From positions 3,047-67,046 of the forward strand of contig JAGAUI010000037.1 in NCBI GenBank assembly GCA_017620815.1: DNA of 64,000 nucleotides. The letters run 5' to 3'. The DNA comes from Flavobacteriales bacterium. Its GTDB lineage: Bacteria > Bacteroidota > Bacteroidia > Flavobacteriales > UBA1820. Below the pieces are notes generated by a model that worked only from the letters and a program-made list of their open reading frames with translations, made no database searches and was not told the origin of the DNA. Shown piece after piece: positions 12,934 through 63,924 of the stretch. The translations under genes and the position numbers were made by a program. The stretch's first letter is position 1. The number at the start of each line of letters is the position of its first letter.

Positions 12934-14805
12934 ATGAATTATCTATCGGTAGAGAACCTTTCCAAATCATACGGAATACGCACACTTTTCAGTGATGTTA
13001 CATTTGGTATATCACAAGGGGAAAAGATAGCCTTTGTAGCCAAAAATGGCAGTGGTAAATCAACGCTTATGCGTATATTATGTGGACGTGAGGACGCCGA
13101 TAACGGCACTGTTACATTCCGCCGAGGTGTAAGTGTGGGATTCCTCTCCCAAGACTATGATTTCCCTCCCACAGCGACCATAGAGGATATAATCTATGGT
13201 GCCGATACCCCTATGTTGCGTACCATACGACGTTATGAGAGAGCTGTACATGATAGTAATTATGCTCATGATTTCCAGTCTGCATATGAAGAGATGGAAA
13301 GTCAAGGGGCGTGGGAGTATGAGTTGAGAATACAGACCGTTCTATCCCAACTCAAACTAGACAACATATCGGTTACATGTGCCCAGATGTCGGGAGGACA
13401 GTTACGGCGTCTAGCTCTAGCACAGGTGCTTATAGAAGCTCCCGATTTCCTCATACTAGATGAACCTACCAACCATCTTGACCTGCCTATGGTAGAATGG
13501 CTAGAGAATTATCTCTCTGGTGAAAAAATAACACTCTTTATGGTTACCCACGACCGTTATTTTCTAGATAGAGTATGTACCGATATTCTAGAACTGGACG
13601 CAGGTAAGCTGTGGCGTTATCACGGGAACTATTCGTATTTTATGGAGAAACGTGCCGAACGCTATGCCGCTGTTACTGCCGAGGCCGAAAAAGCACGTAA
13701 CCTCATGCGGCGTGAAGCAGAATGGATACGCCGTCAGCCACAGGCACGTGGCACCAAGGCAAAGGCTCGTATAGATTCATTTGAAGTGTTACGACAGAAG
13801 GCTTCGTTCCGTATAGATGAACGTGTACTAGAGCTGGGTATAAATATGGAGCGACTGGGTAGCAAAGTCGTTGAGATGCATTCGGTGAGCAAGAGTTGGG
13901 AGGATATGAAGATACTAGATAAGTTTGATTATGTCTTCCGCCGTGGCGAACGCGTGGGTATAGTAGGAGATAATGGCAGTGGCAAATCTACATTTTTACG
14001 AGTGGCTAGTGGTGAAGAAGCTCCCGATAGTGGCAAAGTGGTAATAGGAGATACGGTGGTATTTGGGCATTATCGTCAGGAAGGGATAGAGATAAATCCC
14101 AGAGAAAAAGTGATAGAAGTCCTTAAAAAATATGGCGAATATATCCCACTTGCCAAAGGACGTCGTCTTTCGGCCGAACAACTCCTAGAACGCTTCCTCT
14201 TTACCCGTTCACAGCAGTGGGATTATGTGGAGAAATTATCGGGAGGAGAGCGTCGTCGCTTGTATCTATGTACCGTTCTTATCTCCAATCCCAATTTCCT
14301 CATACTGGACGAGCCTACCAACGACCTAGACATTATAACTCTTACTGTACTGGAAGAATTCCTCATAGAGTATCCGGGTGTGCTACTTATAGTGAGTCAC
14401 GACCGTTATTTTATGGACAAGATAGTTGACCATTTATTTGTATTTGAGGGAGGGGGAAAAATAAAGGATTTTCCCGGCACATATACCGAATACCGCATAT
14501 GGCATAAATCCCAAAAAGCAGTGGATACAGCCACTGCCATAGAGGATAAAAAACCATGTGTAGAAAAACCTCGTGAAAAGAAAAATCGTCTTTCATATAA
14601 AGAGCAGAAAGAGTTTGATGCTCTGGAAGAGGAGATACCTGCACTGGAGAGTGAGAAAAAAGAGATAGAATCTATATTTGCCAGTGGGGAGGAACTATCA
14701 CCCAGCAGGGTAAATGCTCTCTCTGCCCGTATGGAAGAAATTCTTTCTATGCTGGAAGAGAAAGAAGAGAGATGGATAGAGCTCTCTATGATGATAGAGG
14801 ATTAA
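12934..14805 (+). CDS. ABC-F family ATPase (Uup-like, two ABC domains plus C-terminal coiled coil)
   Basis: Two Walker A motifs (GKNGSGKST, GDNGSGKST) and two signature motifs (MSGGQ, LSGGE). No TM domain. Charged coiled-coil tail. I prefer the start at MNYLSVENL. Confidence 0.9.
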   Translation: MNYLSVENLSKSYGIRTLFSDVTFGISQGEKIAFVAKNGSGKSTLMRILCGREDADNGTVTFRRGVSVGFLSQDYDFPPTATIEDIIYGADTPMLRTIRRYERAVHDSNYAHDFQSAYEEMESQGAWEYELRIQTVLSQLKLDNISVTCAQMSGGQLRRLALAQVLIEAPDFLILDEPTNHLDLPMVEWLENYLSGEKITLFMVTHDRYFLDRVCTDILELDAGKLWRYHGNYSYFMEKRAERYAAVTAEAEKARNLMRREAEWIRRQPQARGTKAKARIDSFEVLRQKASFRIDERVLELGINMERLGSKVVEMHSVSKSWEDMKILDKFDYVFRRGERVGIVGDNGSGKSTFLRVASGEEAPDSGKVVIGDTVVFGHYRQEGIEINPREKVIEVLKKYGEYIPLAKGRRLSAEQLLERFLFTRSQQWDYVEKLSGGERRRLYLCTVLISNPNFLILDEPTNDLDIITLTVLEEFLIEYPGVLLIVSHDRYFMDKIVDHLFVFEGGGKIKDFPGTYTEYRIWHKSQKAVDTATAIEDKKPCVEKPREKKNRLSYKEQKEFDALEEEIPALESEKKEIESIFASGEELSPSRVNALSARMEEILSMLEEKEERWIELSMMIED

Positions 14806-15242
14806 AGGAAAGGGATTTTTTTCTTTATCCACCACACTGCTGCTACTATGGTTAGAGCTACTGCTGCCCATAGGTATATTTTATGTGAGGTATTAGGATG
14901 TGTTTTTTCATTTATATTCCCTGTGTGGCTGATGTATCTAGCAGATGTATCTATGGCGACGTTCATAGTGGTATCACAGGAAGTGGTACTGCTGTTTTCT
15001 TTAATGTCATAATGACGGGTTATGACACGTGTGGTACGTCCTGCAGTATCAATTTCTCGTATTTCTTCTTCTATGACATGCGTGCTAGAAAGTGAACATA
15101 GCGTGGAGTTTATATGACCTTTGACTATGTGTAGATTTCTTTTTTCTATAATCTCCCCTTCCGATTTTACATTTATGTTTTTCTTTATCCCACAGGCTCC
15201 TACTATCATAAGAACTGTGATGTATATTACTGTTTTTCTCAT
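14802..15242 (-). CDS. Small protein with an N-terminal lipoprotein signal and a C-terminal TM anchor (unimolecular-spanin-like architecture)
   Basis: 146 aa. Lipobox IVGAC at the N-terminus. C-terminal TM IYLWAAVALTIVAAVWWIKKK. There is a 4-nt start overlap with the upstream gene. Confidence 0.55.
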   Translation of the reverse strand: MRKTVIYITVLMIVGACGIKKNINVKSEGEIIEKRNLHIVKGHINSTLCSLSSTHVIEEEIREIDTAGRTTRVITRHYDIKENSSTTSCDTTMNVAIDTSARYISHTGNINEKTHPNTSHKIYLWAAVALTIVAAVWWIKKKIPFL

Positions 15243-15649
15243 CTTATCTCTATATAATTAAGTTCTTTTTTACGGGAGCATTCGGTGAGGAGTTTTACTA
15301 TTTTATCTTCGGTAGTTTGGCTGTTTTTTATGATGCCCTCTCCTGCTTTTTCTCCCACTAGGATGCATCCGCTGGTATCGTTGGCTGTGTTGCCACTGTG
15401 TATGCGTATGCCAGTGAATTGTGGTACGTCTTCCACAAGAGGCAGTGTGCGGCGGAATTTGGGGGAGTAAGAAAGCGTTATCTTGTATGTCCCGCATGGT
15501 ATAGCTGTATGGTGAGCTATCTTGGGTGAGGAGGAGAGGTCTCTTTCTGTATCTTCCAGACTATGGCATATAAATGTGCCGTGAGAGTTCATTATTACAC
15601 CTTCGCTGTAGAGAGGTGTTTTATGTGTTCGGGTGAGTATTAACTTCAT
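15239..15649 (-). CDS. DUF5675-like protein (phage-associated, possible cell-wall enzyme)
   Basis: 136 aa. Motifs IPCGTYKITL...VPQFTGIRIHSGNTANDTSGCILVGE match my recollection of the roughly 130-aa bacterial/viral DUF5675 family. Confidence 0.55.
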   Translation of the reverse strand: MKLILTRTHKTPLYSEGVIMNSHGTFICHSLEDTERDLSSSPKIAHHTAIPCGTYKITLSYSPKFRRTLPLVEDVPQFTGIRIHSGNTANDTSGCILVGEKAGEGIIKNSQTTEDKIVKLLTECSRKKELNYIEIR

Positions 15650-16025
15650 TTGTTTTTATTGTTTGGCGGAAGGGGCAGTCTGCATCACCACACGAGGTGC
15701 TTTCTATGCGTGAACGCAATAACTGTGTTTCCAGTTCTATTTTATAAAGTTTTTTGGATAGAGTGTTTATAAGGGCTCGTTTTTCATTGAGTTCTTCCTG
15801 CATGCGGTCCACCTCGCTATATGCCTCGCGGATGCTCTCTTTGAGGAAGAGTATTTGTTCGCGGGAGGCTTCTTGGAGGCGGGCGGTGTTTTCTGTATTT
15901 ACCGTTTCTATGTCTTCGCGGCGGCGGAATATAGAACTGAATATCACAGGCAGTAGCTCCCTTAATCCCAATGCTCCTATGAGAGTTATTACCATCTGTC
16001 CTATGCTTATACCATCATTTGTCAT
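15621..16025 (-). CDS. Small membrane protein with a C-terminal coiled coil (holin-like position)
   Basis: N-terminal TM ISIGQMVITLIGALGLRELLPVIF followed by a heptad-rich E/L/K/R segment. The start was set at M18 because a TATATTTG -7 box overlaps the first ATG at 16076. An alternative start is M5 at 16064. Confidence 0.5.
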   Translation of the reverse strand: MTNDGISIGQMVITLIGALGLRELLPVIFSSIFRRREDIETVNTENTARLQEASREQILFLKESIREAYSEVDRMQEELNEKRALINTLSKKLYKIELETQLLRSRIESTSCGDADCPFRQTIKTNEVNTHPNT

Positions 16026-16073: not shown

Positions 16074-16081
16074 CAAATATA
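16074..16081 (-). promoter_or_regulatory. -7 promoter box (TATATTTG) for the three-gene lysis-like cassette
   Basis: Matches TAnnTTTG on the minus strand and overlaps the first in-frame ATG of the 151-aa ORF. Confidence 0.45.
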
Positions 16082-16168
16082 ATAATCAAAAAGGAAATAA
16101 AAAAGCATTTTGGGTAGAAATAGATGTTAAAATTTGTGTAAACGAGATAATGTGCTTATTTTTACCAA

Positions 16169-29479: not shown

Positions 29480-29860
29480 ATGAAACAGATAATACTTACC
29501 CCAAATGCTCCATCTCCTATAGGAGCCTATTCACAAGCTGTTAAACACAACGGCATACTGTATATCTCTGGACAGATAGCTATAGACCCTAGTACCAATA
29601 AACTGGTATTTGACGGCATCAAAAAGGAAACAACTCTTATAATGGAAAACATAAGCAATATACTCCGAGAGGCTGGTATGACTTATGAAAATGTGTTGTT
29701 TACCACTATACTGCTTAAAGATATAAATGACTTTGAGCGTGTAAATGACATCTATTCCAAATACTTTAACCCAGATACAGCACCTGCTCGTGCCGCTTAC
29801 CAAGTAGCTACTCTCCCCAAAAACGTCAACATAGAGATTACTATGATAGCTGGAGAATAA
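29480..29860 (+). CDS. ridA: RidA/YjgF-family reactive-intermediate deaminase
   Basis: 126 aa. Motifs PIGAYSQAV...LYISGQI and ARAAYQVATLP...VEI. Confidence 0.9.
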   Translation: MKQIILTPNAPSPIGAYSQAVKHNGILYISGQIAIDPSTNKLVFDGIKKETTLIMENISNILREAGMTYENVLFTTILLKDINDFERVNDIYSKYFNPDTAPARAAYQVATLPKNVNIEITMIAGE

Positions 29861-29878
29861 TTTTATCTCACTATATGT

Positions 29879-29914
29879 AAATCCCCGCCTCCCAAAGGAG
29901 GCGGGGATTTTTTT
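29879..29914 (+). terminator. Rho-independent terminator after ridA
   Basis: 14-bp perfect stem aaatccccgcctcc/ggaggcggggattt with loop caaa, followed by a T-run. Confidence 0.85.
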
Positions 29915-29951
29915 ATGAGTCATGATATTTGGTAAATTTGTAGGAAATTAC

Positions 29952-29959
29952 TATATTTG
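29952..29959 (+). promoter_or_regulatory. -7 promoter box (TATATTTG) for the tail-like gene
   Basis: Matches TAnnTTTG, 17-26 nt upstream of the candidate ATGs at 29976 and 29985. Confidence 0.5.
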
Positions 29960-29975
29960 ATTATAATGTAAATAG

Positions 29976-32900
29976 ATGAGAAATATGAAAAATATAGTAT
30001 TAGAAAAAAAAGGAGGTAGTATTCTCCCACTCAATAGTAAAAGCCCTCTTATATCTGTTATAACCGCACAGGTGCAGGAGGTGATGATGGGTGATAGCAT
30101 TTTTACTATGGAGATAGAGAGTGCCTTGCCTGTGGATTTTGAGGTAGGGGATAAAGTAAAGGTATTTAATAGTTATTATTATCTCAATAGATTGCCACAA
30201 GTAGAACGTGTATCGTCTAGGCATTTGAAATATAGTGTTACTATGGAGAGTGCAGTGTATTTCCTCTCCCACGTCTTGCTTACCAATACATATGATAATC
30301 CTAGCAGCTTTAACGCCACCGAAGCCGATTTTACCTTCACTGCCGATGCCCGTGGACTACTCAATATGTTATGCCAGAATATGAACAGAGTCTATGGTGA
30401 TGGTCTATGGAGTTGGGAGATAGTGGATAACGGGGTGGACGAACACTTCAATCCAGAATACGACAAGGTGCACAGCATAGCTTTCTCTTCACAGAATGTG
30501 CTTTCGGCATTGGTTAATATAAACGAGTTGTGGGGAGCAGATTACCGTGTGGAAGAGACATCTACGGGATATGTGATACAGGTGGGGCGATATGGGCAGG
30601 ATATACATCAGTACACATTTTCTTATGGCAAGGGAAATGGTCTTTACAGCCTCACTCGTACATCATCACAGGATAGTGTTATAATCACCCGTCTATATGC
30701 TTATGGCAGTAGTCAGAATCTAGGTGCAGGGTATCGCGAGGGACGTAAAAGATTGGCACTGCCACTATCGGGAAATGATGAAAGAACCCGCAATGGACTA
30801 TACATACAGGACGATGTAGCAGTGGAGCGTTATGGGTTGGTAGAAGGAGCAGTGATATGGGACGACATATACCCTCATAGAGAAGGTGTGGTAAGTGCGA
30901 TAGATTCTAGTAGTGAGCTTTGTTTCTGTGATGAAGAAATGTTTGACCTTAACACTAGAGATGAAAAAGGGAATAGCCTATATCTTACATCGGGAGCTAG
31001 CCTTGCGGTACATTTTAATACGGGAGCATTGGCAGGGTATGAATTCAGTGTGGCAGGTTATAATAGTATTACACACCGCTTTACACTCATCCCTTTTACC
31101 GATGAGAATGATTATACATATCCTTCGCCTAATGATGCAGCTTTCCGCATAGCAGTGGGGGATAAATATGTACTGCTGGGCTTGAGCCTGCCAGATGAGT
31201 ATATTTCTAAAGCTGAAAGTGAACTGGAAAAACGTGCGGTAGAAAAATATGAAGAGTGTATAGCCCGTAGTAATAGTTATCAGCTATCTATAGAGGAAGA
31301 CTTTTTAAGACGTTATTTCCCAGTAGGAGATACTGGACATGCTTTCATGGTAGGTGATTATATCCATATCTATGATAGTGATATAACCGATGAAGTACTT
31401 GCATTGCGTGTGATGGCTGTAAATAGAGATGTTTACAGACCATGGTCATATAACCTCACACTAGGAAAGGCCGCTCCTGCTTCTTTCATGGAACAAATAG
31501 TCAAGGAAACAGTTGAAAACTCACGGGTGATACACCACAATAAACTCAAAGACCTTTCAAGAGCCCGCCGCAATACCCGTACTACTGCCGAGGTGATAGA
31601 TATGACATTTGATAGTGATGGGTATTTCATAGGGGGTAAGATACGTCCCGAAACGGTAGAGACGATGGTGCTTAATGTGGGAGCTACATCGGGTAATTTT
31701 ACTCTGGAGGGTGTGCAGATGACGGTAGATGCGGCAGGATATACTTCGCAGTTTGAGTTTACTGATGGCGTACTTTCACATTTCGGACTAGACAAAGAAA
31801 AAGTCATCACATGGAATATAATGGGAGGGACTATCTATGAGTTGGAAGATGACAAAGCATATTACATATATGCTCGTTGTGGAAAAAATGATAGTTCTGG
31901 CACAATCATAGCATCGAGGGATGCATATAGATATAATATAGAAGGTGAGTTTTATTATTTTCTCATAGGTGTACTATCCAGTGTGATGGATGGTTATAGG
32001 ACTCTATCGGCTTCTTATGGTACGACACTTATAAATGGTAGAGAGTTATGTACAGGGGTTATAAAATCGGTCGATGGGAATACATATTTTGACTTGGACG
32101 CAGGAGAGATAGGAGGCAGGATAGTTCTATCTGATAAATCACGTACCGATGCAGGGGAAACTATAATTTCTGGAGGCAAGTTAAACAATTTGCTTATAGA
32201 CACCGATACCCTTGTTGCCAAAAAGATAGAGAGCTGTGAGGGTACGATAGCCGATTTCACTATCCAAGAAAAACAACTGGTAGGCGATGGCAACAAAGTA
32301 ATCTTTTCAAACGAGGTACTGCCTACACTGGAGGACTTGTTAAGCAAAGGAGATACTACATACCCAATAGGTAATAGCAATGTTTCTAATGGCAGTGAAA
32401 CATCATCTATGGGTGATGGACGTGTAGAGCTATCATTAGGGGTGGAATTGCCTACTATGGAGATACCATACGCAGGTATGATGACATTCCGTGTGAGAAA
32501 CACTCGTGGTATCACGTGGAATGACGGGGGAGGTAGATTATCTACCGATGCAAGTAATACTAATGTGCGGGTACAACGAATAGATGCAGATGGTTCTCTT
32601 ACCGATACTGCTGTCTATGCCATAGAGCCAAACACCATTCGTACTATATCTACATACATACCACAGGCGGGAAGTTATCGTGTGATATGTGAGAGCAATC
32701 ACGAGTGCCAGAGTATGTGGATAGAGGATAGCGGTGTAGATGTTTACCCTACCTACACACTTGATGCCAAAATAGAGCTATTGGGTGTTGCGACAGATGG
32801 TATGGTACACCTTACAGGCGGTCAAGAGTGTACGCAGATAGGCACAGATGGTTTTTATTCGTTTTGGAGTGTGATAAACTACCTTTATTTCTCCCAAGAC

Positions 32901-33323
32901 GAAGGACTTAAATTTAAGGGCGATTTCACTGCTACATCATCTAATGGGGAATATAAACTTGCCATTACCGATAATGGTATCATCATAACGGGCGATGTAT
33001 CGGCAGACTATTCTTCGGGTAAGGTGTTATTTGATATAGCTAAAGACCGTACAAATGTAGAGTCTGGTGAGACCTTTGGAGAACTTTTCGGGAAAGTGCA
33101 ACGTTATTTTTCCGACCTTAAATCCGTTGCCTTTACGGGTAGTTACAACTCCCTAACAGATAAACCAGAAATACCTACTATCCCCGAAATTCCCGATGTG
33201 TCTTCTTTCATAACCACCGAAGAAGCACTGTCTGCTATTTCCACATATACGTATTCTAGGGAAGAGATAGAAGAAAAATATGTAGGGTATGACATCGTAG
33301 GAGAGACCGATATAGATATATGA
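29976..33323 (+). CDS. Phage tail-tip / minor structural / fibre-like protein (orphan)
   Basis: 1115 aa with no signal peptide. The N-terminal roughly 300 aa resembles the phage minor-structural/prophage-tail N-terminal region. It is followed by a coiled coil (SKAESELEKRAVEKYEE). The segment INGRELCTGVIKSVDGNTYFDLDAGEIGG and the C-terminal VAFTGSYNSLTDKPEIP motif are both common in phage tail fibres. Confidence 0.7.
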   Translation: MRNMKNIVLEKKGGSILPLNSKSPLISVITAQVQEVMMGDSIFTMEIESALPVDFEVGDKVKVFNSYYYLNRLPQVERVSSRHLKYSVTMESAVYFLSHVLLTNTYDNPSSFNATEADFTFTADARGLLNMLCQNMNRVYGDGLWSWEIVDNGVDEHFNPEYDKVHSIAFSSQNVLSALVNINELWGADYRVEETSTGYVIQVGRYGQDIHQYTFSYGKGNGLYSLTRTSSQDSVIITRLYAYGSSQNLGAGYREGRKRLALPLSGNDERTRNGLYIQDDVAVERYGLVEGAVIWDDIYPHREGVVSAIDSSSELCFCDEEMFDLNTRDEKGNSLYLTSGASLAVHFNTGALAGYEFSVAGYNSITHRFTLIPFTDENDYTYPSPNDAAFRIAVGDKYVLLGLSLPDEYISKAESELEKRAVEKYEECIARSNSYQLSIEEDFLRRYFPVGDTGHAFMVGDYIHIYDSDITDEVLALRVMAVNRDVYRPWSYNLTLGKAAPASFMEQIVKETVENSRVIHHNKLKDLSRARRNTRTTAEVIDMTFDSDGYFIGGKIRPETVETMVLNVGATSGNFTLEGVQMTVDAAGYTSQFEFTDGVLSHFGLDKEKVITWNIMGGTIYELEDDKAYYIYARCGKNDSSGTIIASRDAYRYNIEGEFYYFLIGVLSSVMDGYRTLSASYGTTLINGRELCTGVIKSVDGNTYFDLDAGEIGGRIVLSDKSRTDAGETIISGGKLNNLLIDTDTLVAKKIESCEGTIADFTIQEKQLVGDGNKVIFSNEVLPTLEDLLSKGDTTYPIGNSNVSNGSETSSMGDGRVELSLGVELPTMEIPYAGMMTFRVRNTRGITWNDGGGRLSTDASNTNVRVQRIDADGSLTDTAVYAIEPNTIRTISTYIPQAGSYRVICESNHECQSMWIEDSGVDVYPTYTLDAKIELLGVATDGMVHLTGGQECTQIGTDGFYSFWSVINYLYFSQDEGLKFKGDFTATSSNGEYKLAITDNGIIITGDVSADYSSGKVLFDIAKDRTNVESGETFGELFGKVQRYFSDLKSVAFTGSYNSLTDKPEIPTIPEIPDVSSFITTEEALSAISTYTYSREEIEEKYVGYDIVGETDIDI

Positions 33324-33403: not shown

Positions 33404-34315
33404 ATGAAAAAGATAATTTTAGTTTTATCCCTTGCTTTCATGGGACTTTTTATAACAAGCGGTAATGTAAAATATGGTAAAAACACCCGCCTTACCAAGG
33501 ACTCTATGACACTGCCTTACTATCTCTCTAGTGGAGAGTCTAGTGTGAGTGCATTGGATTTCTTACATAGGGCAGATACAGCATCTTTCTGGAATCTGGA
33601 AGATATGATAGTAGATGAGGTGCTATCTGGTAATGTGCCTAGTGTGATGAAAAAATTACGCAAGATAGTATTTACTACTGCAGTGGTAGATAGTGTAGAG
33701 ATATTAAAACGTCCTCATAAGATAGAGATGTGGATACTGCCAGACTATATCTCCATAGGTAATGATAAAGACTATGTGCGAATGCCTATGGGGCCATTGG
33801 CAGCACAACGCATAGCCGATACATTGGGTTGTATCCTGCCTACTACATACATAGTTGACCGCATAGCCGAAGCCTCACAGGGACATCTGGACATATTCCC
33901 ATTCCGTCCGTTGGGTACTAGGAACAGCCAGCCTATAGTCTATCAGGACAGTAACAACGCCATTAAAGCTCTATATAAAGCATATGGATATAAATATGGA
34001 GAACTCATATCGGGGCTTAAAAAAGATGTGGTTCTCACATATAAAATACATACCCTCAAAGGTCATGAACGCTATGTAGCTATTTACGGTTGGCATCATC
34101 CAGATGGACGTGTACAACAGCCATTACATACTCGTCACGGTAACTTCTATGCCGACTATAGCCACGGCATAAGAATGATATACCGCACTATAAAAGTAGA
34201 TGGTGTGGAGTATGATGCACGAGAGATATTGGAGTCGGAATCGCTGTATCGCTTATTGAGTGATGAGCCTATGCCACTAGGACAAGCCTCCTATGCTGGT
34301 TTCCCTAGATACTAG
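33404..34315 (+). CDS. Secreted hypothetical protein
   Basis: About 303 aa from MKKIILVLSLAFMGLFITSG (signal peptide). Has a His/Tyr-rich conserved-looking C-terminal half (IYGWHHPDGRVQQPLHTRHGNFYADYSHG). I do not recognise a family. Confidence 0.6.
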   Translation: MKKIILVLSLAFMGLFITSGNVKYGKNTRLTKDSMTLPYYLSSGESSVSALDFLHRADTASFWNLEDMIVDEVLSGNVPSVMKKLRKIVFTTAVVDSVEILKRPHKIEMWILPDYISIGNDKDYVRMPMGPLAAQRIADTLGCILPTTYIVDRIAEASQGHLDIFPFRPLGTRNSQPIVYQDSNNAIKALYKAYGYKYGELISGLKKDVVLTYKIHTLKGHERYVAIYGWHHPDGRVQQPLHTRHGNFYADYSHGIRMIYRTIKVDGVEYDAREILESESLYRLLSDEPMPLGQASYAGFPRY

Positions 34316-56725: not shown

Positions 56726-58489
56726 ATGAAATACGACGTATTTATAAGTTATTCGACCAAAGACAAGAAGGTAGTTGAAGGTCTATGTGCATATCTAGAA
56801 CAGCACAAGATAAGGTGTTTTGTGGCGTATAGAGATGTAGATAAAACAGCTGTATGGGCCGAGAAGATAGTAGAGGGATTGGAAGAGAGTAGAATGATGT
56901 TGGTAGTTTTTTCAGAAAACTACAACTGTTCCGACCAAGTGAATAGGGAGATAGAGATAGCCAGCGAAGATAAAAAACCAATACTCACTTTCCGCCTGAC
57001 AGATACCAAATTTAAGGGTGCCAAAAAGTATTATCTTAAAAATCTTAACTGGATAGATGCTTTTCCACATCCCGAAGAATCATTTGGTAGCGTAACCAAT
57101 GATATCTCACGTCTGCTGGGTATAAAAATACCACCTATTACACGTGAAGAACAATCAAATGCTGGAGGAGGGATTGCACCTATACCTACTCCTATGCCAA
57201 AAAAGAAACATAAACATACGTTGGGAATAGCACTGTTTTCTATCGTAGGGATAGCATTGTTGTGTTTTATCATTTATTTTAACGAATGGGGTAATAAAGG
57301 AGAAGAGAAACCCGATGTTCCCGATGTAGTACTGGTGAATGACTCTATAAATAAGCCTGTTGAAGATGTCTCAATCCCTACTAATGTGGCGACTGAAAAA
57401 CCATCATCACAGAAGGCAGAGAAGATAGATACTACCCCAGTTAAGGTAGTAACTACCGAGCAGCAGAAGACCACTACAACAAAGGCGGTTTCCACCCCAG
57501 TTAAGGTAGTAACTACCGAGCAGCAGAAGACCACTACAACAAAGGCGGTTTCTACTCCAGTTAAGGTTGTAACTACCGAGCCGAAGAAGACTAGTACAAC
57601 AAAGGCGGTTTCCACCCCAGTTAAGGCCGTAACTACCGAGCAGAAGAAGACCACTACAACAAAGACGGTTTCCACTCCAGTAAAAGAAGAAAAAGCTACG
57701 GTGTATTTTATGGATAGTTATGGTAATGTGGGATATTTTAAGGAAGGAATTGTGCATGTTGAAGGTCGTAAATATGGTTATATAGACGAGACAGGCAAAG
57801 AGGTTACCCCTTGTATATATGATTTTGCAGGGGAATTTTCCGAAGGCTTGGCTTCGGTAAAGAAAGATGGCAAATGGGGTTATATAGATAAGACGGGAAA
57901 AGAGGTTATTCCATGTGAGTATGATAAAGCATATTATTTTTCCGAAGGCTTGGCGGTGGTAGGGAAAGGTAAAAAATGGGGGCATATAGATAAGATAGGA
58001 AATGTAGTTACCCCTTTTATATATGATTATACAGATTTTTTTAACGAAGGCTTGGCATATGTTATTAAAGGAAGAAAATTTGGATTTGTAGATAAGACAG
58101 GCAAAGAGATAGTACCTTGTATATATAATGATGCAAGTGAGTTTTCCGAAGGCTTGGCGGGGGTAGAGAAAGGTAAAAAATGGGGCTTTATAGACAAGAC
58201 AGGACGAGAGGTTGTCCCTTGTATATATGATGATACAGGGTTATTTCACGAAGGCTTGGCAAGTGTTGAGAAAGATGGGAAAGAAGGTTATATAGATAAG
58301 ACAGGAAAAGTGGTTGTTAAATTTATATATGATTTTGCCTCGAGTTTTTCCAAAGGCGTGGCTCATGTGAAAAAAGATGATAAGTGGGGCTATATAGATA
58401 AAACAGGAAAAGAGGTTATCCCTTGTATATATGATTATACAGTGTCTTTTTCCGAAGGCTTGGCTCATATGAAAAAAGATGGTAAGTGA
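56726..58489 (+). CDS. TIR domain - single TM - Thr/Pro/Lys-rich tandem-repeat stalk - WG-repeat array protein
   Basis: 587 aa. N-terminal TIR_2-type sequence MKYDVFISYSTKDKK...LVVFSENYNCSDQVNREIEIA, with the Glu retained at the position of the TIR catalytic Glu. TM helix LGIALFSIVGIALLCFIIYF with KKKHKH on its N side. Then 4.2 copies of a 20-aa repeat and about 8 units of a 34-aa FSEGLAxVKKDGKWGYIDKTGKEVIPCIYD repeat. The ORF ends at a TGA that replaces the Trp of the last KWGYIDK motif. Confidence 0.85.
   Translation: MKYDVFISYSTKDKKVVEGLCAYLEQHKIRCFVAYRDVDKTAVWAEKIVEGLEESRMMLVVFSENYNCSDQVNREIEIASEDKKPILTFRLTDTKFKGAKKYYLKNLNWIDAFPHPEESFGSVTNDISRLLGIKIPPITREEQSNAGGGIAPIPTPMPKKKHKHTLGIALFSIVGIALLCFIIYFNEWGNKGEEKPDVPDVVLVNDSINKPVEDVSIPTNVATEKPSSQKAEKIDTTPVKVVTTEQQKTTTTKAVSTPVKVVTTEQQKTTTTKAVSTPVKVVTTEPKKTSTTKAVSTPVKAVTTEQKKTTTTKTVSTPVKEEKATVYFMDSYGNVGYFKEGIVHVEGRKYGYIDETGKEVTPCIYDFAGEFSEGLASVKKDGKWGYIDKTGKEVIPCEYDKAYYFSEGLAVVGKGKKWGHIDKIGNVVTPFIYDYTDFFNEGLAYVIKGRKFGFVDKTGKEIVPCIYNDASEFSEGLAGVEKGKKWGFIDKTGREVVPCIYDDTGLFHEGLASVEKDGKEGYIDKTGKVVVKFIYDFASSFSKGVAHVKKDDKWGYIDKTGKEVIPCIYDYTVSFSEGLAHMKKDGK
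57431..57682 (+). repeat. 60-bp (20-aa) tandem repeat, about 4.2 copies, inside the first TIR gene
   Basis: Unit ..ccccagttaaggtagtaactaccgagcagcagaagaccactacaacaaaggcggtt encodes TPVKVVTTEQQKTTTTKAVS. Copies 1 and 2 differ only in their first 3 nt. Confidence 0.95.
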
Positions 58490-58534
58490 GGCTATATAGA
58501 TAAGATAGGTAAAGTGGTGATAATGGAAAAATAA
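57700..58534 (+). repeat. 102-bp-period (34-aa) WG-repeat array of the first TIR gene
   Basis: The recurrent cc(a/t)tgtatatatga motif is spaced 102 bp apart. The array continues in frame past the TGA at 58487 to a TAA at 58532-58534. Confidence 0.85.
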
Positions 58535-58546
58535 TGAAGGAATAAA

Positions 58547-59425
58547 ATGATTAACCCATCAGAATTTATACACCCAGAAGACGCAGCAGCACTTCGCCAG
58601 TTGGAGAGTATACCCGGCTTTCCAGCATTGGTAAAAAAAGTGATGGCATTGGGATTTGAACAGTTGCAGTATGGACTTAATATGGCTACAGCTATACGCC
58701 TATCACCTACACAGCTGCCTCAATTATATAACCACCTCCCTCCTATATGTGAAAAATTAGGAATAGATGAACCAGAATTCTATCTGCAGATGGACCCTAT
58801 GCCCAATGCTTGGACGTTTGGAGATACGAGGATTTATATCACTATAACATCGGGACTGGTGGAGATGATGAATGATGAAGAACTAGATGCAATCATCGCC
58901 CACGAATGTGGTCATATACTATTCCGCCATGTGTTATATCATAGTATCGCCAGATATATCTTTTCGGGAGCCGATGCACTGGGGATATTGGGAGCATTTG
59001 CAGCACCTATAAAGTATGCTATCTATTATTGGGAACGTAAAAGCGAACTTTCCTGTGATAGATGTGCAAGCTTAATAACATCGGCCGATGTGGTATCTCG
59101 TGTGATGGCTCGCCTTTCGGGTGGACCAAAGTCTATAACTGCTTCGCTCAATATGCAGGAATGGGCCCTCCAAGCCGACAAATATGATGAAATATATAAC
59201 GATGGGCTATGGAATAAAGCATTGCAGATATCACAAATACTGGAATTGGACCATCCTTTCAGTGCTGTGCGTGTGCGTGAAATCCTCAAATGGAGTGAAA
59301 CCGCTCAATACAAAACAGCTAGAGATACTATAATAGGATATGCCTCTGCCAAAAAATGCCCCAAATGTCACAAAGGCGTTGACACAGAATGGAAGTTCTG
59401 TAAGTATTGTGGAGAAAAATTGTAG
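58547..59425 (+). CDS. M48-family zinc metallopeptidase with a C-terminal zinc ribbon
   Basis: 292 aa. HExxH motif (IAHECGHILFRH), a downstream RKSELSCDR segment (third-ligand Glu, ExxxD as in HtpX-type M48), and a C-terminal CPKC-x9-CKYC ribbon. Confidence 0.8.
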   Translation: MINPSEFIHPEDAAALRQLESIPGFPALVKKVMALGFEQLQYGLNMATAIRLSPTQLPQLYNHLPPICEKLGIDEPEFYLQMDPMPNAWTFGDTRIYITITSGLVEMMNDEELDAIIAHECGHILFRHVLYHSIARYIFSGADALGILGAFAAPIKYAIYYWERKSELSCDRCASLITSADVVSRVMARLSGGPKSITASLNMQEWALQADKYDEIYNDGLWNKALQISQILELDHPFSAVRVREILKWSETAQYKTARDTIIGYASAKKCPKCHKGVDTEWKFCKYCGEKL

Positions 59426-59499
59426 ATGTAATAATCCACCTAATGTAGTTCATGATAAATACCACATATACATATTTCAATAATTAAATATAATACATT

Positions 59500-59772
59500 A
59501 TGTTTTTTGATAAAGAAGGAAATCTAAATCTAGATGAACTGGTAATAGCCCATGATTCTTTTAAGAATATAATGGAAGATGGTCAAGTTACAGATGAAGA
59601 AATCGTTACTCAAACACAAAAAATTATAGGTATTCTCCGTGATATGGAAGGAAGATACAGTAAGGAAGAATTGGCAGAAATTAAAGAACTTCTTGTAGAG
59701 ATGAGTGTTCTATATGCTGCATATAATATATATTCAATTCAAAATATAAATAAAGGCTATGGGGACATTTAG
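59500..59772 (+). CDS. Small acidic hypothetical protein
   Basis: 90 aa, predicted helical, no recognised family. There is a 14-nt overlap with the next gene. Confidence 0.5.
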   Translation: MFFDKEGNLNLDELVIAHDSFKNIMEDGQVTDEEIVTQTQKIIGILRDMEGRYSKEELAEIKELLVEMSVLYAAYNIYSIQNINKGYGDI

Positions 59773-60265
59773 CACACGAGAGATTTTACAAGGGTCACCA
59801 TCTGTGATTTCTGTTATAGCAGACCATATAAAGACTGAATTTCAGAAAGATGGTTATGAGGTAATAGTAGATGTATTGAGTAGTGGAGGTTATGATATTT
59901 CTATTACAAAAGGGGGTATATTTAAAACGGTATTGGGTATGAAAACGGCGTTGAAGATTATGTTACTTCCTAGGGGTAATAGTATTTATTTTGATGCTAG
60001 TGTAGGGATATGGGGTCAGCAATTAATACCTACTATAGTATCTGTATTTTTCTTTTGGCCTGTATTGATTACCCAGATATGGGGAGTTGTAGAGCAGTCA
60101 AAACTTGATGATAGGGCATTGGATATAGCAAGAAGTATAATCTATCAAAATACCAATGATGAGGTGGTGCCATCTACATCAAACGGCAGTAAGTTCTGCA
60201 CGTGGTGTGGTACCAAAAATGAATCATCAGCCAATTTTTGCAAAGAATGTGGTCAAGCTTTATAA
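59759..60265 (+). CDS. Hypothetical protein with a central hydrophobic segment and a C-terminal zinc ribbon
   Basis: 168 aa. Hydrophobic segment LIPTIVSVFFFWPVLITQIWGVV. C-terminal CTWC-x10-CKEC ribbon of the same type as in the M48 protein. Its stop is 2 nt before the next start. Confidence 0.6.
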   Translation: MGTFSTREILQGSPSVISVIADHIKTEFQKDGYEVIVDVLSSGGYDISITKGGIFKTVLGMKTALKIMLLPRGNSIYFDASVGIWGQQLIPTIVSVFFFWPVLITQIWGVVEQSKLDDRALDIARSIIYQNTNDEVVPSTSNGSKFCTWCGTKNESSANFCKECGQAL

Positions 60266-60267
60266 TT

Positions 60268-62256
60268 ATGAAATACGACGTATTTATAAGTTATTCTCGC
60301 AAGGATTATGCCGAGGAGATAATAAATGAAAAGGGAGAAAAAGAAGAAAGGATAATCCCAGGGAATATCGTTTCCCAGATAATTAAATATTTGAAAAAGA
60401 ATAAGATATCATATTGGTGGGATGAGTATGGTATGTATTCGTCTGATGAGTTTATAGAGATTTTGGCGGAACATATAGCAGAATCAAGGATACTCCTGTT
60501 TATCTCTACCGAAAATTCCAATGCGTCCAAATGGACCCCAAAGGAGATATCTTCGGCTTTACATCTTGAGAAAAAGGTAATACCTTTTAGGGTAGATAAT
60601 TCAAAATACTCTAATAGCGTACTTTTTCTAATATCAGATATAGATTTTATAGATTATAGTAAAGACAAAAAGAAAGCTTTTAAAAAGCTGGAGGTATCTA
60701 TAAAGAAAATACTGGAAGACGAAAGATTGCGTCTAGAAGAGGAACGCAAGCGTAAAGAGGAAGAAGAACGTCGCCGTCAAGAGGAAGAGGAGAAAAAGAA
60801 AGAAAAGGAAATCAATAAGCCCATAAAGAAGGACTATAAGTACTACGCCAAGACAAGACACTGGAGTGTGAATGTGCTGTTATGTGGCATGTTTGGTGTA
60901 GCATTCGGGTTTGGTGTTCTTGCATATCTATTAAAAGAAATGGGAGAAATAAATAAAGTAGAGATGTGGTTGTATGTCTCGTTGGCAGCGGGGGGAGTAG
61001 CTGGTTTACTGGATATTCTACAGAACAATAAAAGAGGTGTATATATACTGCTCTCGCTTATGGTTATCCCATTGTGCGTGTTTATAATGGGCTATGCACA
61101 TACAAGAATTTTTACTATCCCTATAGTCTTTCTATTATCTATATATATTATTCTTATATGCATCATGCCTATCAAGAAAAATGGTATAAGAGCATATGAT
61201 TTACTAGAAAAAGGTAGATGCTGGATAAGTAAAAGTCGTCCACGAGATAACGCAAATGTTTTTCCTTATGTGCTTTTTATAATTTTCCTAATAGCCTTCA
61301 TACATGTAAATATAAAGTATAAATTTTTTAATTGTGGAGGAGGATTTAAGGAAGGTATGATGGCTGTTGGAAAATATGACAAGTGGGGTTTTATAGATAT
61401 GACAGGAAATATAGTTGTCCCTTTTAAGTATGATGATGCAGGGCATTTTTTCAAAGGCTTGGCGTTGGTGAAGAAAGATGGCAAGTGGGGTTATGTAGAT
61501 AAAACAGGGAAAGAAGTTATTCCATGTATATATGATTATGCCTCGGATTTTTCTGAAGGCTTGGCTTCGGTAGAGAAAGATGGGAAATGGGGTTATGTAG
61601 ATAAAACAGGCAAAGAGATAGCACCATGTATATATGATTATGCCTCGGGTTTTTCTGAAGGCTTGGCTTCGGTAGAGAAAGATGGGAAATGGGGTTTTAT
61701 AGATAAGACAGGCAAAGAGATAGTACCATGTATATATGATGATGCTGGGTGGTTTTCTAAAGGCTTGGCACGTGTTAAGAAAGATGGAAAATGGGGTTTT
61801 ATAGATAAGACAGGCAAAGAGATAGTACCATGTATATATGATGATGCTGGGTGGTTTTCTGAAGGCTTGGCACGTGTTAAGAAAGATGGTAATTGGGGTT
61901 TTATAGGTAAGACAGGAAAAGAGGTCAGTCCTTGTATATATGATTATGCTGGGTCTTTTACCGAAGGCATGGCACGTGTAGGGATATTATCTTTTGACGA
62001 TTTAAGATTTGGCTTTATAGATACAACTGGGAGAAAAGTTGTATCATGTGAATATCAAGAGGCGAGTGATTTTTCCGAAGGACTTGCTGCTGTGAAAAAA
62101 TATAATGATAAATGGGGTTTTATAGATAAGACAGGGAAAGAGGTTATTCCATGTGAGTATGATAAAGTAGAGTATTTTTCTGAAGGTCTGGCACGTGTTA
62201 AGAAAGATAGAGAGGTATTTATTATAGATAAAGAAGGAAATAGGGTGATAGATTAA
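60268..62256 (+). CDS. TIR domain - charged coiled coil - 5 TM - WG-repeat array protein
   Basis: About 662 aa from MKYDVFISYSRKDY. TIR_2-type sequence with SKWTPKEIS (Glu retained). An E/R/K-rich helix (EERKRKEEEERRRQEEEEKKKEKE). Five hydrophobic helices that obey the positive-inside rule. About 9 WG repeats. The upstream 10 codons of the ORF overlap the previous gene and were rejected. Confidence 0.85.
   Translation: MKYDVFISYSRKDYAEEIINEKGEKEERIIPGNIVSQIIKYLKKNKISYWWDEYGMYSSDEFIEILAEHIAESRILLFISTENSNASKWTPKEISSALHLEKKVIPFRVDNSKYSNSVLFLISDIDFIDYSKDKKKAFKKLEVSIKKILEDERLRLEEERKRKEEEERRRQEEEEKKKEKEINKPIKKDYKYYAKTRHWSVNVLLCGMFGVAFGFGVLAYLLKEMGEINKVEMWLYVSLAAGGVAGLLDILQNNKRGVYILLSLMVIPLCVFIMGYAHTRIFTIPIVFLLSIYIILICIMPIKKNGIRAYDLLEKGRCWISKSRPRDNANVFPYVLFIIFLIAFIHVNIKYKFFNCGGGFKEGMMAVGKYDKWGFIDMTGNIVVPFKYDDAGHFFKGLALVKKDGKWGYVDKTGKEVIPCIYDYASDFSEGLASVEKDGKWGYVDKTGKEIAPCIYDYASGFSEGLASVEKDGKWGFIDKTGKEIVPCIYDDAGWFSKGLARVKKDGKWGFIDKTGKEIVPCIYDDAGWFSEGLARVKKDGNWGFIGKTGKEVSPCIYDYAGSFTEGMARVGILSFDDLRFGFIDTTGRKVVSCEYQEASDFSEGLAAVKKYNDKWGFIDKTGKEVIPCEYDKVEYFSEGLARVKKDREVFIIDKEGNRVID
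61330..62240 (+). repeat. 102-bp-period WG-repeat array of the second TIR gene, with near-identical adjacent units
   Basis: Motif starts fall at 61522, 61624, 61726, 61828 and 61930. A 69-bp stretch at 61690-61758 is repeated exactly at 61792-61860. Confidence 0.9.
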
Positions 62257-62316
62257 AGAGTATCTAGTAAGATGTATAATAGTTAGATATTTGATAGTAA
62301 ATTATTTGTTATAAAT

Positions 62317-63924
62317 ATGTTGCAAGAAATAGCAGAATTGGTGAGAAATCTATGGGATAGAAATCCTCATAGAGATTCAATAGAATGGTGGGCAGAATAT
62401 AACCCCATAGATATAAATGTGTTTGTACTGTGGTTGGTTATATTCCTGGGAGCGTTGAGTGTCATAGTATATCTCATATATAAAGATAGATTGTCCTCCA
62501 TTAACGATTTTATATCTAGACACCTTCTCTTGCTGTCATTGGTGGTGTGGATAGCGGGAGTGGTCTTATATATGATAGGGTATTTCTGTTCCCATATGTC
62601 TTGGCTGTCTATTATACCGCGTGCTGTCATTTCTTCCTTTAAGATGTTTGTGGTGGTAAATGATTTGGCTAGGGTAGAGCCTTTGATGAGGGAAGACGCT
62701 GTGTATATGGCTATATTTTCTATTGTACATCTGTTGGCAGCCTATATAACATTCTTGTTTATCTTTAAGATAGTAGGTTTTAAAATAAAATCTAGTATAA
62801 AGATAATCAAATACAAGATGTTTATGGGTAGGGATAAGCAGGTGCATATCTTCTGGGGAGTGAACGAAGCATCATACTTATTGGCCAAATCCATATATGA
62901 AAAAGCATCTAATGATGATATCATCTTTATAGATGTAGATGAAGAAACCGAAGATAGTACCAATAGAAAAGCAACCATAGCCAATATAACCAATAGTATT
63001 ACCATAAAAAATAGTGATATCATACGCCTTAACCATATAGATGCAATGGTAGAACATTGCTATGGAGGGCCAGCATCGGTAGATACAAATGATTGTAATG
63101 ATGTATTCGGGGCGTTACGATTAAATAGTATAGGCTCTATTGTAAAAAGAAGTAAAAAAGTCAAATTTTATTTCTTTTCAAATGATGAATCGGCCAACGT
63201 ATTGGCGGCTATCAATATCCAGGCCGATTATAGAGTACGCTTAAAAAATAAAGAAGATGTTACTATCTATCTTCATGCCCGTAGAAATGTATGCAATGAG
63301 GTATTTGACCATTATGCACAGTATAACATGGATGATACCACTAGAAAACCTATCAAGATAGTGGATTCAGCATATATGGCATTGGAATGGGTGAAAAAAG
63401 AAAAACAATACCTACCAGTCAATAATGTAGATATTGAAAAAGGAACAGGTCTTGTTAAAGATTCTTCATTCACATCAATGGTTGTAGGATTTGGAGAGAC
63501 AGGTGTCGAAGCGTTCAAATTCCTGTATGAGTTTGCAGCATTTGTGGGAATAGATATGAAAAAAATCCCATTCAAATGTTATGCCATAGACCAAAATATG
63601 GATAAAAAAAGAGGTGCTATACGTGCCAAAATGCCTGCAATAAATGAAGATGAGCTATCTCTTGTTACAGCATCTGTGGATAGTGATGTTTTCTGGGAAC
63701 TATTGAAAAAGGAGATAAATAATCTCAATTACATATTCATAACACTTAATGATGATAATGTGGGATTGTCTCTGGCAGTTAATATCTTCAAGTATGCCTT
63801 GAGGTATCGCAATGATGATTTGCCAAAACTTAAAATAATGATAAGATGTTATAATGTGAGCAATGAGAAAAAAATGAAGGAGGTAAAAAACAGCCTCAAT
63901 AGATCTATCGATGGCCAAAAGTAG
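62317..63924 (+). CDS. Membrane protein with tandem KTN/RCK-like Rossmann domains
   Basis: 535 aa. About 4 N-terminal hydrophobic helices with no K+ selectivity-filter motif. Two beta-Gly-helix units follow: VHIFWGVNEASYLLAKSIYE...IIFIDVDEE, and MVVGFGETGVEAFKFLYE...CYAIDQN (GxGxxG plus an acidic beta2 end). Confidence 0.6.
   Translation: MLQEIAELVRNLWDRNPHRDSIEWWAEYNPIDINVFVLWLVIFLGALSVIVYLIYKDRLSSINDFISRHLLLLSLVVWIAGVVLYMIGYFCSHMSWLSIIPRAVISSFKMFVVVNDLARVEPLMREDAVYMAIFSIVHLLAAYITFLFIFKIVGFKIKSSIKIIKYKMFMGRDKQVHIFWGVNEASYLLAKSIYEKASNDDIIFIDVDEETEDSTNRKATIANITNSITIKNSDIIRLNHIDAMVEHCYGGPASVDTNDCNDVFGALRLNSIGSIVKRSKKVKFYFFSNDESANVLAAINIQADYRVRLKNKEDVTIYLHARRNVCNEVFDHYAQYNMDDTTRKPIKIVDSAYMALEWVKKEKQYLPVNNVDIEKGTGLVKDSSFTSMVVGFGETGVEAFKFLYEFAAFVGIDMKKIPFKCYAIDQNMDKKRGAIRAKMPAINEDELSLVTASVDSDVFWELLKKEINNLNYIFITLNDDNVGLSLAVNIFKYALRYRNDDLPKLKIMIRCYNVSNEKKMKEVKNSLNRSIDGQK

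Follow-up and report, generated by a model that had tools for sequence, protein, structure and literature searches.

A siphophage tail-tip gene and a phage-type lysis cassette with a common promoter element in gut Flavobacteriales

A tail-tip gene among housekeeping genes

A 64-kb stretch of DNA from a Flavobacteriales bacterium (contig JAGAUI010000037.1), referred to here as the window, carries a large phage-derived gene between two ordinary bacterial genes. The gene, which we call TAL, is an uninterrupted open reading frame (ORF) with an ATG start at 29976..33323 on the plus strand and encodes a siphophage Tal (hub plus central fibre) of 1115 amino acids (aa). Its true start may lie 9 nucleotides (nt) downstream, at the ATG at 29985, because homologues begin at the position of M4. 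Loci and proteins used for comparison are denoted by L and P numbers, respectively.

The upstream ridA gene (PF01042) ends at 29860 and is followed at 29879..29910 (+) by an intrinsic terminator with a 14-bp stem (nine G-C pairs), a loop of 4 nt and a T-run, which isolates TAL from upstream transcription. The promoter region of TAL, at 29938..29961 (+), contains a diverged copy of a family-wide element (TAAATTTGTAGGA) and then a second -7 box, TATATTTG, at 29954-29961, which fits the Bacteroidota -7 consensus TAnnTTTG. This remodelled promoter is common to the window and the sister species represented by L001 and L011. A preliminary description of this DNA had placed the 1115-aa frame after the ridA terminator, with TATATTTG just upstream and a secreted-protein gene behind it. 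The sequence confirms this arrangement, and the downstream ORF has a signal-like hydrophobic segment. That description had also proposed that TAL has its own promoter in housekeeping surroundings, which is supported by the terminator, by TATATTTG and by the ordinary character of the flanking genes. The upstream neighbours encode TetR, FabH, a DUF5128 protein, an ABC ATPase, a beta-lactamase-fold protein, CCG/Fer4 proteins, MlaD, amidase_3, LptD and RidA. Downstream lie genes for a secreted protein of 303 aa, a formate/nitrite transporter, DUF4492 and CydAB, a rhamnose operon and glycoside hydrolases.

The identity of TAL as a phage tail-tip protein is secure. The Prophage_tail family of Pfam (PF06605) matches aa 168-299 at 33.6 bits, compared with a curated cutoff of 31.3, and PHROGs 19846, 31303 and 15074 match aa 4-750 with E values of 1e-116 to 3e-168. 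Residues 2-730 are 30-34% identical to the ‘tail protein’ of Porphyromonas phage005, Riemerella RAP44-like phages and Bacteroides phage Versailles, and the phage005b counterpart (XAW31829.1) comes after the genes for the tape-measure protein (TMP) and the distal-tail protein (Dit), which is the position of Tal. An AlphaFold2 model has moderate confidence at aa 1-500 (per-residue confidence score, pLDDT, mostly 65-85), aa 575-680 and aa 790-950. A Foldseek search of the Protein Data Bank (PDB) with this model returned Tal of phage NF5 (9m7n_A, E 3.7e-14), gp18 of a Listeria prophage (3gs9, TM-score 0.63), Mu gp44, and VgrG and PVC spikes, and the model also matches ‘tail protein’ models in BFVD with E values down to 2e-49. 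A profile of the TAL family matched nothing among PDB sequences. Pfam, PHROGs, tblastn and the predicted fold thus all agree with the tail-tip identity first proposed.

Many Tals, though not all, carry a C-terminal cell-wall-degrading domain. No enzymatic (lysin) domain was found in TAL with Pfam, NCBIfam or PHROGs, and no Pfam domain was found in its C-terminal region, for which no dedicated model of the sorting domain of type IX secretion systems (T9SS) was used. TAL also has no signal peptide; its N-terminus is polar and lacks a hydrophobic segment, and the N-termini of its homologues are equally polar. A Sec- or T9SS-exported adhesin is ruled out by the missing signal peptide.

The absence of other phage genes was assessed with blastx, using the structural and lysis proteins of Porphyromonas phage005b as queries against the whole window and the loci of relatives (10 kb on either side). 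Pfam scans covered ORFs of at least 150 aa between approximately 16 and 64 kb plus two further upstream, and the eleven ORFs of this size in the first 13 kb were covered by the phage005b blastx only. Neither approach detected capsid, terminase, portal, tape-measure, Dit or integrase homologues in the window. Tal was the sole blastx match in the window and in all six chromosomal loci tested. By the same search, the phage005-like viral contigs tested show a full series running from the major capsid protein (MCP) to TMP, Dit, Tal, a second tail protein (tail2) and holin, and for the prophage loci tested, TMP or a second tail protein is the minimum found. The window contains no tRNA, no Rfam family and no convincing att-like repeat. 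A contiguous prophage, whether intact or defective, was therefore rejected: structural genes, tRNA and att repeats are missing, and housekeeping synteny is kept in relatives. The same absences near the gene, of capsid, terminase, portal, tape-measure, integrase and att-like repeat, had been noted in the preliminary description, and the blastx, Pfam and repeat searches agree with it.

TAL is modular. The hub domain, of the gp27/Tal type, spans aa 1 to approximately 500 (29976..31475, +) and is the part to which the confidence range and Foldseek matches given above apply. Further along, at aa 686-714 (32031..32117, +), lies an INGR...YFDLD.GEIGG segment, INGRELCTGVIKSVDGNTYFDLDAGEIGG, which forms invariant columns in two alignments. 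Its core residues are invariant even among phage homologues, and the segment gives weak matches to DUF1408 and phrog_5450. A beta-sandwich domain at aa ~790-950 (32343..32825, +; pLDDT 72-95) is specific to the chromosomal clade. Its predicted structure has weak Foldseek matches to carbohydrate-binding modules, MAM, TNF-like jelly rolls and lambda tail-tip domains, and the domain is a candidate, and possible, ligand-binding module. In tblastn searches, aa 740-1115 have no match in GenBank phages, and aa 740-1006 constitute an extra region specific to the clade. Among 1.84 billion representative proteins searched with HMMER, approximately 15 match the clade-specific region over its full length, mostly long proteins at the equivalent position. 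A phage origin of aa 740-1115 was rejected on the grounds that GenBank phages give no match and that the other HMMER matches are to the junction motif alone.

This junction motif, AFTGSYNSLTDKP, occupies aa 1052-1064 (33129..33167, +), corresponds to phrog_21765 (E 2.9e-8) and divides a conserved body from a swappable distal module. Both it and INGRELCTGVIKSVDGNTYFDLDAGEIGG had been quoted in the preliminary description, and both are present. The body is conserved up to the AFTGSYN(S/D)L junction, at approximately aa 1064, and alignments diverge directly after this point, lineage by lineage. About 2,400 representative proteins match the junction stretch alone, often as repeats. The surrounding stretch, aa ~1007-1090 (window 32994-33245) with the pattern ...FGK......DLK.VAFTGSYNDL..KP, occurs up to 21 times within one protein, and the motif looks as if it serves phage fibres universally as a linker or recombination joint. 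Because it is extremely widespread, it may plausibly act as a recombination joint.

What follows the junction differs greatly between clades. TAL ends in a fast-evolving C-terminal stub of only 48 aa (aa 1068-1115; 33177..33320, +; dN 0.75 versus L001), and other clades have receptor-binding-like modules of 323-667 aa at this position. In one clade, the proteins share 97-100% identity over the first 1070 aa and 28-100% (median 59%) over their distal modules, and a second clade shows the same pattern of conserved body and swapped distal module. The distal module of P0045 matches tail-fibre and host-range PHROGs, and no close phage relatives of its C-terminus were found in IMG/VR.

Descent and selection of the tail gene

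Homologues of TAL with 42-74% identity and 95-100% coverage are present in gut and rumen metagenome-assembled genomes (MAGs) labelled Flavobacteriales bacterium, including UBA1820 and Candidatus Merdimorpha, on contigs that reach 1.98 Mb. Gene order around ridA, to which the preliminary description had drawn attention, is kept over considerable distances. At 74% identity (L001, L011) the order amidase-LptD-RidA-gene-303-aa protein is intact, and at 52% identity (L012) LptD-RidA-gene is intact. In the clade of L004, ridA lies ~10 kb upstream of the tail gene, with a resistance-nodulation-division (RND) efflux operon between them. A four-gene RND efflux operon directly precedes the tail gene in several clades (L004 371-9544, L006 1-8543, L013, L014 and L016), where the canonical promoter element described below has stayed with the tail gene.

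A neighbour-joining tree of the hub region groups all 13 of the 13 chromosomal copies in one clade, sister to phage005-like viral contigs. Matches to TAL in IMG/VR do not exceed 36% identity, and most end by aa 783. Compared with L001, the synonymous divergence (dS) of TAL is 1.09, and that of eight neighbouring genes is 0.61-1.08. The ratio of nonsynonymous to synonymous divergence (dN/dS) for TAL is 0.17 versus L001, where the neighbours have 0.05-0.13, and 0.19 versus the 98%-identical L010. The neighbour-like dS, taken with these dN/dS values, therefore indicates that TAL diverged with its genome under somewhat relaxed purifying selection. Constraint is uneven along the hub: dN/dS is ~0.09-0.10 in aa 1-300 and rises to 0.20 in aa 301-520.

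Intact tail-gene ORFs of 1100-1850 aa are found in 12 of the 13 lineages sampled. A homologue split into two frames at approximately aa 604 occurs in L017 and L105, which are the same contig (CALJDR010000003.1 = OWIO01001323.1), and this frameshift is either an assembly error or a sign of occasional decay that has left one lineage with a pseudogene. A fragment of 124 aa at a contig end (L021 2-373; USBC01000010.1, labelled uncultured Ruminococcaceae) is 65% identical to aa 288-411 of TAL, and this contig is probably mis-binned Flavobacteriales.

These data support the conclusion that TAL is an anciently domesticated gene passed on by vertical descent in several clades of gut Flavobacteriales known only from MAGs. 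Domestication was among the options raised in the preliminary description, and the intactness of the gene, purifying selection and vertical inheritance all favour it. Another option, that TAL is the last remnant of a decayed prophage, holds historically, but its sense of decay is at odds with the same three observations. The preliminary description had also set out beforehand what would speak against its reading, namely a non-phage family, a contiguous prophage or decay in orthologues. When these were checked, none was found to apply.

A lysis cassette and its shared promoter element

The window contains a second set of phage-type genes 13.9 kb upstream of TAL. Three overlapping ORFs at 16025-14802 on the minus strand form a phage-type lysis cassette, the products of which we call LysA, LysB and LysC. 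The 1-kb interval 15001-16000, which coincides with this minus-strand cassette, has the most extreme AT skew of the window (-0.29).

LysB (136 aa; 15239..15649, -) is a predicted endolysin-type enzyme of the DUF5675 family (L,D-peptidase / C82-like; PF18925, E 4.4e-29) with no signal peptide and no hydrophobic segment. It is 37-46% identical to ORFs of many phages, several of which are annotated L,D-carboxypeptidase/transpeptidase in crAss-like phages, and in the crAss-like phage cr85_1 the matching ORF adjoins a holin. Within phage005-like contigs, the viral sister clade of TAL, the ORF between holin and spanin is 41-42% identical to LysB. DUF5675 has been classed as a C82-like peptidase lysin candidate in a 2026 preprint (10.64898/2026.04.11.717860).

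LysA (134 aa; 15621..16025, -) has an N-terminal transmembrane (TM) segment, a coiled coil and two conserved cysteines, and it combines the position of a holin with an i-spanin-like topology. No Pfam or phage homologue of LysA was found, and none was detected outside this bacterial group. The family comprises 25 protein clusters, and all members that are named or were checked for context belong to Flavobacteriales MAGs or occupy the conserved slot. LysC (146 aa; 14802..15242, -) is a lipoprotein with the lipobox LMIVGAC and a C-terminal TM segment, a topology characteristic of unimolecular spanins. Its position and topology are like those of the spanins of phage005b and of contigs L036, L062 and L024, with no sequence similarity to these phage spanins.

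The cassette genes evolve under purifying selection, with dN/dS values of 0.15 (LysA), 0.07 (LysB) and 0.21 (LysC). Their chromosomal slot, with FabH-TetR on one side and ABCF-YicC-Gmk on the other, is identical in every lineage sampled, and the gene tables of the lysis-cassette loci list no phage structural family. TAL and the cassette occur together in the MAGs JAFYKQ01 (L011 with L114), IJ382 (P0045 with P0131) and PHD21 (P0004 with P0138). In IJ382 they are separated by ~640 locus tags (IJ382_00725 versus IJ382_03940). PADLOC-DB 2.0 gave no match at E ≤ 0.001 for TAL, LysA, LysB or LysC.

An alignment of the regions upstream of chromosomal tail-gene copies reveals a 25-nt element, ATTTC(C/T)TTT(T/A)TGATTATTATATTTG, that consists of a spacer and a terminal -7 box, with TTTG 19 nt upstream; in short form it reads TTTG-N2-ATTTCYTTTWWGATTATTATATTTG. 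Outside the genus of the window, every lineage has the canonical element 56-72 nt ahead of the tail-gene start codon, despite differing upstream neighbours, and it is found upstream of TAL in 11 loci (L004-L007 and L012-L018). The window itself has a canonical copy, ATTTCCTTTTTGATTATTATATTTG, before the cassette at 16074..16098 (-), which is the one match in the window at ≤3 mismatches where 0 are expected. With 0-1 mismatch, the element precedes every cassette that was examined for it (L099, L108, L110, L114-L116 and L118-L123).

The specificity of this association was assessed in large datasets. An exact-match search of JGI metagenomes over 23 nt gave 17 places, of which 11 are tail-gene loci, three are cassette loci and three are chance matches in AT-rich eukaryote-like DNA of 17-36% G+C. 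Among the 2.9 million viral contigs of IMG/VR there is no exact match, and the element was accordingly rejected as a phage late promoter. No further bacterial site was found at ≤5 mismatches in 1.77 Mb of locus sequence, where the additional near-matches are one site in a viral contig (4 mismatches) and several in eukaryote-like loci. Neither the JGI metagenome scan nor the bacterial part of the 1.77 Mb thus yields additional regulon members, and on present evidence the element appears to mark exactly two kinds of locus, TAL and the cassette. Because both carry the same 25-nt element, they are probably switched on together. TAL had been called an orphan in the preliminary description, which is correct in that it has no phage structural neighbours. 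However, a partner cassette with the same promoter element lies within the window and had been overlooked.

Possible release of TAL and alternative explanations

Our preferred interpretation, which is tentative and to which we give slightly less than an even chance, is that TAL and the cassette are the domesticated right arm of one ancient prophage, and that the co-regulated cassette frees the fibre protein, which has no signal peptide. A single prophage origin seems most likely because phage005-like siphophages have counterparts of both loci in their right arm, where Tal is followed by holin-endolysin-spanin. According to this proposal, a phage005-like prophage would have lost everything to the left of Tal, including the head, tube, tape-measure, Dit and integration genes. 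The remainder would have come under host control and later been split by rearrangement. TAL would fold in the cytoplasm as a trimer of hub and central fibre, lacking a signal peptide, and the element would drive its co-expression with the envelope-breaching cassette. The cassette could then permeabilise or lyse the producing cell, or a subpopulation, and let TAL out much as PblB or the cargo of type 10 secretion systems (T10SS) is released. Once outside, the swappable distal modules may recognise a variable ligand on a surface, either a glycan or another cell.

A bolder version of this proposal is that the genes form a self-contained, tail-less fibre release system, in which a free tail-tip trimer with swappable modules, a minimal cassette and one promoter element together provide an adhesin or a cell-targeting agent. 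We consider this version somewhat doubtful. If correct, such a system would be a new class, distinct from tailocins, gene transfer agents (GTAs), contractile injection systems and classical T10SS cargo.

Each component has counterparts in known systems. Like the Tal proteins of phage005b (XAW31829.1), Riemerella RAP44-like phages and phage Versailles, TAL has a gp27-like hub, the INGR...YFDLD motif and a variable fibre after the body. Unlike them, it has no TMP, Dit or other structural gene adjacent to it, and it has its own promoter, a fixed chromosomal position and the extra region at aa 740-1006. A precedent for a tail protein that acts outside the virion is PblB, which combines a Prophage_tail domain with a carbohydrate-binding domain, is freed by phage-induced permeabilisation and then serves as an adhesin (PMC4508584). 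The PblB proteins of Streptococcus mitis phage SM1 and of pneumococcal prophages share the PF06605 N-terminus with TAL. However, the prophage that encodes PblB is intact and inducible, and tail morphogenesis still requires this protein, whereas only TAL and the cassette survive here, separated in the chromosome and conserved as host genes.

T10SS derive from phage lysis cassettes (PMC13284979, PMC10847048). These systems consist of holin / peptidoglycan hydrolase / spanin cassettes, with cargo such as the Tc toxin of Yersinia entomophaga and the chitinase and typhoid toxin of Salmonella. The putative likeness is that a large cargo candidate without a signal peptide is paired with a membrane protein, a peptidase that also lacks one and a spanin-like lipoprotein. 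In contrast to T10SS, the candidate cargo is a phage tail protein that is not adjacent to the cassette and is linked to it only by the element, LysA has one TM segment and no holin homology, and the hydrolase is missing in several lineages. F-type tailocins and GTAs are likewise domesticated phage parts, and the present genes may share with them host control, release by lysis and fast-evolving receptor-binding tips. The fibre and spike genes of RcGTA lie outside its main cluster. Unlike in tailocins and GTAs, tube, tape-measure, Dit and capsid genes are lacking in all sequences examined, and only the adsorption and lysis ends are kept. TAL and the cassette are thus a variant of domesticated prophage parts with putative T10SS-like or PblB-like release, and not a member of any one of these classes.

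Several observations weigh against release of TAL by the cassette. The hub, which docks on Dit and TMP in phages, is the most constrained part of the protein (dN/dS ~0.1), and this is more easily explained by docking to a tail. The promoter of TAL in the window has diverged from the shared element and the distal module has shrunk to 48 aa, and the function of TAL may have shifted in this genus. The case for co-regulation comes solely from the DNA sequence, and the element differs little from a consensus Bacteroidota promoter. Only topology and position identify LysA and LysC, which have no detectable homology to holins or spanins. LysB is absent from L110, L115-L117 and L121-L123, and canonical lysis therefore cannot be universal. 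Finally, the searches for structural genes cover the window and the 10-kb flanks, and tube, TMP and Dit genes may lie elsewhere in the genome.

The last point bears directly on another explanation, in which TAL and the cassette are dispersed modules of a larger particle, F-type tailocin or GTA-like, with tube, TMP, Dit and possibly a head encoded elsewhere in the chromosome. TAL would then form the tip of that particle and its receptor-binding fibre, with the cassette serving for its release. Phage Tal is only known to work on an assembly of Dit, TMP and tube, which would also account for the strong constraint on the hub. A co-regulated lysis cassette together with strain-level swapping of fibre tips is a classic tailocin feature, and the distance between the two loci in IJ382 demonstrates that modules do become dispersed in these genomes. 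Nevertheless, we judge this explanation unlikely. Tube, TMP, Dit and capsid homologues are missing from the window and from within 10 kb of six chromosomal TAL loci, the gene tables of the cassette loci are free of phage structural families, and the element scan returned TAL and cassette loci only. Moreover, the genes that were kept form the contiguous right end of a phage005-like genome, where Tal and one or more accessory tail proteins precede the holin-endolysin-spanin genes, and one-sided deletion fits this better than retention in pieces. The constraint on the hub could also mean that TAL acts on the tails of invading phages. Infection by a phage005-like virus might turn on the shared promoter, for example through a phage late activator, whereupon the host Tal would compete for Dit or TMP and yield defective tails, and the cassette would cause premature lysis as in abortive infection. 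This anti-phage role would suit the retention of the hub, the would-be docking part, with almost no distal module in the genus of the window. It would also suit the closest relatives of TAL and LysB lying in one viral lineage, and a dedicated promoter element that could serve as an infection sensor. Yet the element is absent from 2.9 million viral contigs, PADLOC matches none of the four proteins, no defence genes adjoin either locus, and a poison subunit offers no role for the swapping of long receptor-binding-like modules. We regard this explanation as distinctly improbable.

TAL is intact, equipped with a promoter, cytoplasmic and furnished with variable host-range-like modules, as might be expected of a tail tip supplied in trans to a satellite or to a phage that lacks one. 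A role as receptor decoy, which the preliminary description had also suggested, is a further candidate explanation. Supply in trans is very unlikely, however, as a Tal gene of its own is present in every related phage and viral contig examined, neither locus has a satellite-like element nearby, and the fixed chromosomal positions in every lineage sampled argue for a host function. Similarly, the frameshift in one MAG copy (L017/L105) and the loss of the distal module in the genus of the window might be taken as signs that TAL no longer has a function and is a neutral relic of a decayed prophage. That view is extremely improbable given the long ORFs intact in all but one of the lineages, dN/dS of 0.17-0.19 at neighbour-like dS, the conserved promoter, and purifying selection that extends to the lysis genes.

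The domesticated phage parts described to date are mostly whole machines, such as tailocins, GTAs, contractile injection systems and type VI secretion systems, or single lysis cassettes (T10SS). In the present case, a siphophage seems to have left only its adsorption and lysis ends, which several clades of uncultured gut Flavobacteriales retain and in which the receptor-binding tip can be swapped. If the two loci are one unit, as the proposed release of TAL by the cassette implies, then a tail-tip protein can serve its host in the absence of a tail, secretion of the lysis-cassette type would extend to Bacteroidota, and the tail gene would be a natural scaffold of exchangeable binding modules. 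On a more conservative reading, TAL is a clean and datable case of vertical inheritance of, and purifying selection on, a single phage structural gene.

The genes that follow the tail gene differ between clades. The 303-aa secreted protein (33404-34315, +; mature start 33404) has a hydrophobic signal-like N-terminal segment and is found behind TAL only in the genus of the window, with other genes filling this position in other clades. It has no match in Pfam, PHROGs, NCBIfam or a PDB sequence search. At 91% identity and dN/dS of 0.06 versus L001, within a range of 0.04-0.06, it is far more conserved than TAL. This stronger conservation, together with its own TActTTTG box ~20 nt upstream, suggests that it is probably not an operon partner of TAL. 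The tail gene of other clades is followed by a 258-601-aa protein that lacks a signal peptide and, in two of three examined, contains InlB-B-repeat (Flg_new_2) domains. This accessory protein has no homology to the phage tail2 protein. The next ORF in two clades encodes 64-72 aa with two TM segments and is holin-like by topology only.

Elsewhere in the window, a block of low G+C content (0.34-0.39) extends from 56726 to 63924 (+). It contains an ORF of 535 aa with no Pfam match, a zinc-ribbon ORF of 168 aa, an M48 peptidase with a zinc ribbon, and two paralogues that combine a TIR domain with 7-8 WG beta-repeats and give weak ThsB-like PADLOC matches. This block may be a defence or signalling island.

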